Shown in pieces: positions 31,871 to 32,398 of a stretch of DNA of 58,445 nt. The stretch is from a virus, in the UHGV virus genome UHGV-0021275; one strand, 5' to 3'. Below the pieces are notes generated by a model. That model did not search any database, was not told the DNA's origin, and saw nothing but the letters and a program-made list of their open reading frames with translations. A program made the position numbers and the translations under genes. Each line of letters opens with the position of its first letter. Position 1 is the first letter of the stretch.

Positions 31871-32398
31871 TCAGTAGTTGCGGAACACGTGCCCATCAAT
31901 AAACGTGTAGTCATTGATGAACAAATCACGCGCAAACTTCTCATAGTCGAAGTAGTAGCGCAGGTTCTGCGGGATCGCGTTCAGCTCGCCAGTCTCCTCC
32001 AGCAGCTGCACGGCGTAATCTTCCTCACTGTCTGCCGTTCCGCTGTAGGACTCGTAAAAATTTTCTACGTCGGTGTCGTGGAAGTCCCCGACAAACAGCG
32101 CGTAAGCCTCCGCCCACTCTTCGTTATTCTCTTCCAGCACCCGGCGCAATCCGTCGATATAGTCCCAGTTGATCGACGTATCCGAGACAGTGCCGCGCGG
32201 CATGTTCTCATAGTCCTGGAACATAAATTCGGGATCTGCTTCGTCGCTGTGCAGCTCCGCAATCTTCGCATAGAAGTCATCGCGATCGGTCACATCGTCC
32301 AGCAGGTTGATCCATTTACCTTCAATGCTGCCGTTGTTGTACTTCGCATACGTTCCAACATATACTGATGGCGCGGTAATGGTGATTTCAGTAGTCAT
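31871..32398 (-). CDS. ardA: ArdA-family anti-restriction protein (DNA mimic)
   Basis: From the internal Met of track ORF 31871-32617, AGGAG RBS. 175 aa, highly acidic. N-terminal YVGTYAKYNNGSIEGKWINL and C-terminal LLEETGELNAIPQNLRYYFDYEKFARDLFINDYTFIDGHVFRNY parallel remembered Tn916 ArdA signatures. Confidence 0.75.
   Translation of the reverse strand: MTTEITITAPSVYVGTYAKYNNGSIEGKWINLLDDVTDRDDFYAKIAELHSDEADPEFMFQDYENMPRGTVSDTSINWDYIDGLRRVLEENNEEWAEAYALFVGDFHDTDVENFYESYSGTADSEEDYAVQLLEETGELNAIPQNLRYYFDYEKFARDLFINDYTFIDGHVFRNY

Follow-up and report, generated by a model that had tools for sequence, protein, structure and literature searches.

A full-length ArdA anti-restriction gene in the first leftward operon of an undescribed Escherichia coli phage or phage-plasmid lineage

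ArdA is a well characterised family of anti-restriction proteins, best known from conjugative plasmids and transposons; its members inhibit type I restriction and, when present in larger amounts, modification as well. Plasmid ardA genes have single-strand promoters of the leading region. The ardA gene of the IncI1 plasmid pJIE174, whose product (WP_021545156.1) we take to match the classical EcoKI-inhibiting ColIb-P9 type, is part of the leading region, with psiB, ssb, and nikAB close by. In phage T7, the acidic dimeric DNA mimic Ocr (gp0.3) acts against type I enzymes and is encoded near the start of the early region transcribed by the host RNA polymerase; the T7 0.3 mRNA is flanked by RNase III hairpins. 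In the ArdA of Tn916 (ORF18), the residues listed as essential are F91, the "VF motif" (I160-F161), and four residues of the "antirestriction motif", which is located where the two subunits of the dimer meet, namely L127, L134, Y137, and I138 (McMahon et al. 2009, PMC2731889). A phage-borne ArdA-like protein, gp119 of Fletchervirus, resembles ArdA domains 2-3 only and inhibits endonuclease V (EndoV) (PMC13091555). Here, the virus genome UHGV-0021275 (58,445 nucleotides; the whole stretch is referred to as the window) was found to carry an ardA gene at positions 31871-32398 on the minus strand. What is new is the carrier lineage, by which ArdA is extended to an uncharacterised E. coli phage or phage-plasmid family.

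The ardA product is very probably a full-length ArdA directed against type I restriction and expressed early, as the fourth cistron of the first leftward operon. As the initial annotation had it, the open reading frame (ORF) encoded an acidic protein of 175 aa (plus the stop codon) exactly at 31871-32398. The protein had 20 D and 19 E vs. 4 K and 7 R, a net charge of -28, and an isoelectric point (pI) of 4.05; the predicted product was a three-domain DNA-mimic anti-restriction protein. The start codon ATG was located at 32398-32396, and a Shine-Dalgarno sequence AGGAG (32407-32411, minus strand), invariant in five relatives, was located 8 nt upstream of it. A mechanical ORF listing gave a longer reading of 248 aa from a GTG at 32617. 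This reading was discarded: 5' of the ATG, the relatives differ by indels of 9, 6, and 2 nt, so that the frame is not conserved there, and the ardA homologues were all about 160-185 aa long; the extension also contained an intergenic hairpin that is described below. The G+C content of ardA (51.7%) was near that of the genome (50.9%), so the gene showed no sign of recent import.

A hidden Markov model search showed that the protein matched Pfam ArdA (PF07275) at E = 8.7e-33 with 114.6 bits, well above the gathering cutoff of 27 bits; the match covered profile positions 1-150 of 155 and residues 12-168. It also matched PHROG 2059, "anti-restriction protein" (E = 1.3e-29). The ArdA signatures reported earlier at both termini, the N-terminal VYVGTYAKYNNGS and the C-terminal YFDYEKFARDLF...DGHVFR, fell on columns that were invariant, or almost so, in an alignment of 54 ArdA sequences. 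Sequence comparison with the Protein Data Bank (PDB) revealed 2w82, the Tn916 ORF18 ArdA chain, at E = 1e-7 as the sole solved relative; 7bto and 7btr, which were deposited with the same ArdA chain, were matched as well.

A single-chain AlphaFold2 model built on the 54-sequence alignment had a mean predicted local distance difference test score (pLDDT) of 92.1 and a predicted template modelling score (pTM) of 0.85. In the model, a beta/alpha domain was followed by a helical domain and a second beta/alpha domain. Among the 34 hits of a Foldseek search of the PDB, 2w82_B and 2w82_A were the only matches at E ≤ 0.001 (E = 3.7e-5 with template modelling (TM) scores of 0.66/0.71), with a probability of 1.00, TM scores of 0.61-0.71 for the two chains together, and 174 aligned columns extending over all three domains. 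Both the profile search and the modelled fold, which matched that of Tn916 ArdA (2W82), therefore agreed with the family assignment made in the initial annotation. These results showed that the ardA product is a genuine full-length ArdA.

Alignment with the 2w82 sequence showed that F91, L127, L134, Y137, and I138 of Tn916 ArdA corresponded to F106, L139, L146, Y149, and F150 of this protein, and the VF motif I160-F161 was placed at V171-F172 through the C-terminal HVFR motif. In the 54 homologues, Y149 was invariant, and F150 and F172 were at least 90% conserved. By alignment, the residues essential in Tn916 ArdA are conserved in the ardA protein.

Homologues with 44-50% identity were found in more than 5000 plasmids, and 4103 of the 5000 best-scoring ones were conjugative. 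Only 48 of 50,697 cultured-phage records had a homologue, all with less than 37% identity, and none of those listed was enterobacterial. ArdA is thus more typical of conjugative elements, as had been proposed.

The relatives found for the window were one plasmid record and a number of contigs. The record pSTEC648_2 (CP061838.1) is a closed circular "plasmid" of 60.5 kb from a sheep Shiga toxin-producing E. coli (STEC) isolate and was typed as non-mobilizable; it shared about 75% nucleotide identity with this genome over 76% of the genome, and it was the sole plasmid record matched by megablast of the region. The other relatives were contigs, 56-61 kb long, from assemblies of E. coli isolates and from metagenomes; in addition, a 58.8-kb metagenome contig in ENA encodes an identical ArdA protein. 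In every relative found, ardA occupied the same position, with 83-94% protein identity in genomes that were about 75% identical in nucleotides. The order of genes of 152/153 aa, 55 aa, 54 aa, and ArdA was kept in nearly all of the longer relatives, two of which missed one small-ORF call. Homologues of 92-94% identity are already labelled "antirestriction protein ArdA" in GenBank. The gene 3' of ardA varied: its product had 282 aa in this genome, while most relatives had a 192-aa gene at this place and one had an 80-aa gene. In one relative (L094, ENA k141_38110), an IS21-family transposase pair (rve and IstB) was observed at 3966-6274, about 3.3 kb 3' of ardA, which suggests the insertion of an insertion sequence into the early arm of that genome.

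The window was a closed, complete genome of 58,445 bp; it was judged circularly complete because one ORF, a large virion gene, reads through the end-to-start junction. The rightward arm extended from about 35.4 kb across the junction to 7.6 kb and encoded the large terminase, the portal, the major capsid protein, an internal virion protein, and a very large protein with LPD38 and YkuD domains. The leftward arm (33.3 to 7.7 kb) encoded RusA, a family-A DNA polymerase, an SNF2-type helicase, a DUF927 protein, a 3'-5' exonuclease, and a PD-(D/E)XK nuclease; given this gene content, "leftward early arm", the term used in the initial annotation, is a fair description. A ParB protein (20206-21141, minus strand) scored above the TIGR00180 cutoff, and a HigB/HigA toxin-antitoxin pair (7690-8341, minus strand) was located at the far end of the leftward arm. 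No ParA or plasmid initiator was identified in the genome, no conjugation or mobilisation genes were seen in it, and no tRNAs were found.

The best cultured-phage matches of the DNA polymerase, in Rhizobium phages and Pseudomonas KPP25-like phages, had 25-27% protein identity, and megablast of positions 29000-35000 gave no match in cultured phages or complete E. coli genomes. The carrier therefore belongs to an undescribed E. coli phage or phage-plasmid lineage of about 58-61 kb without a close cultured-phage match. A phage-plasmid lifestyle of this lineage is likely because of the ParB protein, the toxin-antitoxin pair, and the plasmid-form relative. The contig breakpoints of the relatives varied from record to record and allowed no inference on the physical virion ends.

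Just three small ORFs preceded ardA in its operon (33302-32844, 32851-32684, and 32687-32523), in agreement with the earlier description, and they were translationally coupled through overlapping stop and start codons. The first (32844-33302, minus strand) encodes a basic protein of 152 aa with a pI of 8.7. It had no match in Pfam, PHROG, or NCBIfam and no homologue in IMG/VR; among the GTDB species genomes there was one marginal partial match, in Paenibacillus. Its counterpart in most of the longer relatives had 153 aa, and one relative (L081) had a 129-aa call there. The second ORF (32684-32851, minus strand; 55 aa, pI 4.4; phrog_18706 at E = 2.7e-10) and the third (32523-32687, minus strand; 54 aa, pI 4.05; weak PHROG matches) encode acidic proteins conserved in the relatives, which are possible candidates for further host-takeover or anti-defence proteins.

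The initial annotation had placed the end of the leftward arm at 33.3 kb. This position was confirmed as the head of the operon; it was not the last leftward coding sequence, because a possible 193-aa leftward ORF (35442-34861) lies farther on, beyond a non-coding region of 1.3 kb.

A sigma-70 promoter was predicted at 33491-33519 (minus strand), with the -35 hexamer TTGACA at 33519-33514, a 17-nt spacer, and the -10 hexamer TTTAAT at 33496-33491. The first small ORF followed about 180 nt downstream of it, and ardA about 1.1 kb downstream. The hexamers and their spacing were conserved in five relatives, while the flanks diverged. In the leader RNA, a boxA-like element, GCTCTTTAACAA (33431-33442, minus strand), was identical to the core of the rrn boxA, ugcucuuuaacaa (PMC2724277 Table 1); it was the single match in the window even when one mismatch was allowed, and it was invariant in the five relatives. 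About 36 nt 3' of boxA, a leader hairpin (33360-33394, minus strand) had a 12-bp stem and the loop CACUGAGACAA. Alignment and folds of the relatives showed a conserved loop and a lineage-specific stem, and by eye the hairpin was unlike the boxB of lambda or P22. Rfam gave no match for 31-36 kb at E ≤ 1, nor was an N-like protein identified. From its sequence elements, the leader looks like a nut-like or rrn-like antitermination leader of an early operon. The early-type position of ardA proposed earlier was thus borne out by the conserved predicted promoter upstream and by the conserved gene order.

By homology with the ArdA proteins of Tn916 and ColIb-P9, the product would pair into an elongated, highly acidic homodimer resembling about 42 bp of B-form DNA and would fill the DNA-binding groove of the type I methyltransferase core (M2S1). 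Type I enzymes would thereby be kept from recognising and cutting the incoming unmodified genome. Host RNA polymerase is predicted to initiate near 33484 at the conserved sigma-70 promoter, and the rrn-type boxA would probably render transcription termination-resistant. With this start and with read-through over about 1.1 kb to ardA, ArdA would be an immediate-early product, made in about the first minute after DNA entry, whether by infection or by plasmid establishment.

Two hairpins with common stem sequences flanked ardA. Between the 54-aa ORF and ardA, a branched hairpin (32428-32529, minus strand) had the outer stem AAUUAUUGCCGC.../...GGCGGCAAUGGUG; its RNA fold had -57.5 kcal/mol (z = -6.6), and 0 of 200 shuffles were as stable. 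The relatives had the same architecture (-56.6 kcal/mol, z = -4.9). The 3' hairpin (31809-31873, minus strand), which is built of inverted and direct repeats and overlaps the ardA stop codon, folded at -32.5 kcal/mol (z = -4.35), and at -39.2 kcal/mol (z = -5.5) in the relatives, in which its outer stem showed one A-U to G-C compensatory pair. The common stem sequences were AATTATTGCCGC in one arm and GGCGGCAATGGTG in the other; the latter 13-mer occurred exactly twice in the genome, at 31821-31833 and 32441-32453. Both hairpins were kept in the relatives with different loop inserts, and nucleotide homology to the relatives stopped just past the 3' hairpin, at about 31810-31850. A second 3' hairpin (31739-31784, minus strand), a perfect inverted repeat with the 10-bp stem TAACGCACTT/AAGTGCGTTA, was specific to this genome, the intergenic region of the relatives being shorter. 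Because a 15-aa micro-ORF at 31795-31749, 3' of ardA, falls within a hairpin and the relatives lack it, it was not counted as a gene.

The flanking hairpins were not accepted as canonical terminators, since the scanner called neither of them and the U-run was not conserved: the 5' hairpin is followed by U6 here and by TTTATC in the relatives. They were also dropped, by eye, as integron attC sites (the core motifs mismatch) and as Frpo-type plasmid single-strand promoters (no convincing -35/-10 in the stem). Candidate roles are RNase III-type processing or stabilisation of the ardA mRNA, or a recombination boundary.

Directly 3' of ardA, an acidic beta-solenoid protein of 282 aa (30851-31699, minus strand; pI 4.9) was observed, with YdcK-type hexapeptide-like repeats (Pfam PF18836, PHROGs 7964 and 5070). 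It is a candidate second anti-defence gene product because some beta-solenoid repeat proteins are DNA mimics.

Several observations weighed against an early ArdA directed at type I enzymes. No NCBIfam model named the ardA protein, and homodimerisation was deduced from the conserved interface residues only. The gene is not the first of its operon, three ORFs and a very stable hairpin preceding it, and the 5' hairpin together with the U-run, in this genome only, could attenuate transcription. ArdA-like proteins can also have other targets, as EndoV is for gp119 of Fletchervirus.

This last point leads to the alternative that survived best, namely a DNA mimic with the ArdA fold that mainly targets something other than a type I enzyme, or something in addition to one; another DNA-binding protein of defence or repair, such as a BREX methyltransferase or EndoV, would be a candidate. 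DNA mimics are promiscuous: gp119 inhibits EndoV (PMC13091555), and Ocr is reported to inhibit BREX (PMC7261183). The position of ardA among small acidic ORFs and beside the acidic beta-solenoid gene would also fit a multi-target anti-defence cluster. However, gp119 covers ArdA domains 2-3 only and the present protein keeps all three, its identity to the IncI1 plasmid ArdA is 49%, and every ArdA assayed in PMC2731889 acted on type I systems; the alternative was therefore considered improbable.

A use of ardA mainly on the plasmid side, in establishment, anti-modification, or gene regulation in the carrier cell and not in lytic infection, was considered very improbable. It would fit ParB, HigB/HigA, and the closed circular 60.5-kb relative in an E. 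coli isolate, as well as the ArdA-like genes in the shell genome of SSU5-type phage-plasmids (PMC7969092) and the reported variation among ArdA proteins in the range of host genes regulated (PMC10746416). The constitutive-looking sigma-70 promoter, however, fits expression on any entry route, and no conjugation or mobilisation genes were seen here, the relative being non-mobilizable. Because the biochemical mechanism would be the same, this alternative differs in context and not in function. Least credible of all was an inactive or dispensable passenger (moron) between recombinogenic hairpins, for which the common stem sequences of the flanking hairpins and the break in homology past the 3' hairpin, with a next gene of 282, 192, or 80 aa by lineage, could be cited, but which disagrees with the constant position of ardA in every relative (83-94% protein vs. 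about 75% nucleotide identity), the intact essential residues, and a G+C content without sign of recent import. An early-expressed ArdA against type I restriction thus remained the preferred explanation.

The distribution of type I targets was examined with the recognition sites listed by Loenen et al. 2014 (PMC3874165 Table 1) for 26 natural type I enzymes of enterobacteria. The genome contained 254 such sites in total; it is therefore not generally protected and is a potential type I target. The poorest 6-kb window in the circle was 31501-37500 with 4 sites vs. 26.1 expected, and the poorest 4-kb window was 31501-35500 with 2 sites vs. 17.4 expected. This minimum was unmatched in 300 motif sets with permuted half-sites and in 500 uniform placements, and shuffles preserving the local dinucleotides gave 22.4±5.1 expected sites in the 6-kb window. 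In pSTEC648_2, the minimum was found at 8201-12200 (4 sites vs. 19.4 expected), on the control region, the three small ORFs, and ardA, with scan P values of 0.017 (4 kb) and 0.010 (6 kb).

Control motifs that kept the half-sites but had wrong spacers were still about 1.5-2-fold depleted in the region, so the depletion is partly compositional. The true spacing gave the lowest count in this genome and the second lowest in pSTEC648_2, where the -1 spacing gave 3 vs. 4 sites (4 kb) and 7 vs. 10 sites (6 kb). Type I site depletion around ardA and the control region is suggestive, as an idea formed post hoc on two genomes that have the ardA block in common.

Since the minimum of target density fell on this segment in two genomes that are about 75% identical, ardA may tentatively be seen as the centre of a phage "leading region" of about 4-6 kb that is purged of type I targets and perhaps enters first, with flanking hairpins that may process or stabilise the ardA mRNA; we regard this as rather unlikely. 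The segment would extend from the control region through the early promoter, its boxA, and the three small ORFs to ardA. If this were true, type I enzymes would fail to see the genome before ArdA had built up.

The 1.3-kb non-coding control region upstream of the early operon (33520-34860) contained arrays of TTGAGCA/TGCTCAA and TGTAGCA/TGCTACA heptamers at 33683-33785, 33836-33962, 34084-34100, and 34348-34371, and a very AT-rich stretch at 33975-34030. Palindromes of the CTGCGCATTGCGCAG type were located at 34208, 34313, and 34715, with related copies at 34765 and 34817. The relatives carried TGCTACA-type repeats at the same place, and the region looks like an origin, centromere, or operator region. 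Beyond it, the possible 193-aa ORF (34861-35442, minus strand) had a good AGGAG-ATG start and overlapped the mechanical start of the first rightward ORF. It had no homologue in Pfam, PHROGs, or NCBIfam, and the relatives had a 96-aa gene in the opposite orientation at this locus.

Among phages, ArdA-like genes of the same family were found in Rhodococcus RER2-like phages, Desulfovibrio ProddE, and Shewanella Y11 with at most 36% identity; 79 contigs of IMG/VR carried ArdA-like genes with at most 49% identity. Fletchervirus gp119 is likewise a phage-borne acidic protein with the ArdA fold, but it protects a deoxyinosine-containing genome, whereas the present protein is full-length and no hint of a modified genome was found here. 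The small ArdA, sArdA (PMC12548430), is described as a single domain of about one-third of the ArdA length; the 175-aa protein, with all three domains modelled, was ruled out as an sArdA.

Tn916 ORF18 ArdA (2W82) shares with the present protein the three-domain fold and a comparable acidity, and its antirestriction motif, VF motif, and F91 are conserved here. The two differ in that their identity is 23-24% and that Tn916 is a conjugative transposon with a Gram-positive host range.

The IncI1 ArdA of pJIE174 was 49% identical to the ardA protein over the full length. The blocks in common were the N-terminal VYVGT.KYN.GS, FQDYE, and the C-terminal YFDYE.YARDLF...FIDGHVFR. Both genes lie in the part of their element that is expected to be expressed first, the leading region in one and the head of the early operon in the other. 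The carrier here is, however, a tailed-phage-like genome with virion genes and not a conjugative plasmid; ardA is predicted to be under a double-stranded sigma-70 promoter with a boxA; and the protein is 9 aa longer. Such an element would be expected to pass from one E. coli strain to another despite type I restriction.

The parallel to T7 ocr drawn in the initial annotation held as a functional analogy and did not extend to sequence or fold: a Pfam scan (E ≤ 0.01) gave ArdA only, and no Ocr was present among the 34 Foldseek hits in the PDB. In addition, the ocr gene stands first, at a defined end of its genome, while ardA is the fourth in its operon. Recognition of the anti-restriction gene from the raw sequence was correct, and in itself this was a fairly ordinary annotation. 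The hairpins that flank ardA recall the RNase III hairpins that bound the T7 0.3 mRNA, and the conserved promoter-boxA leader, the matched hairpins, and the target-poor zone together hint at an organised phage "leading region". If the zone and the hairpins were functional, this would be a phage in which the avoidance of target sites, early transcription, and a DNA mimic are brought into concert, following the same logic as T7 ocr by way of a plasmid-type protein.

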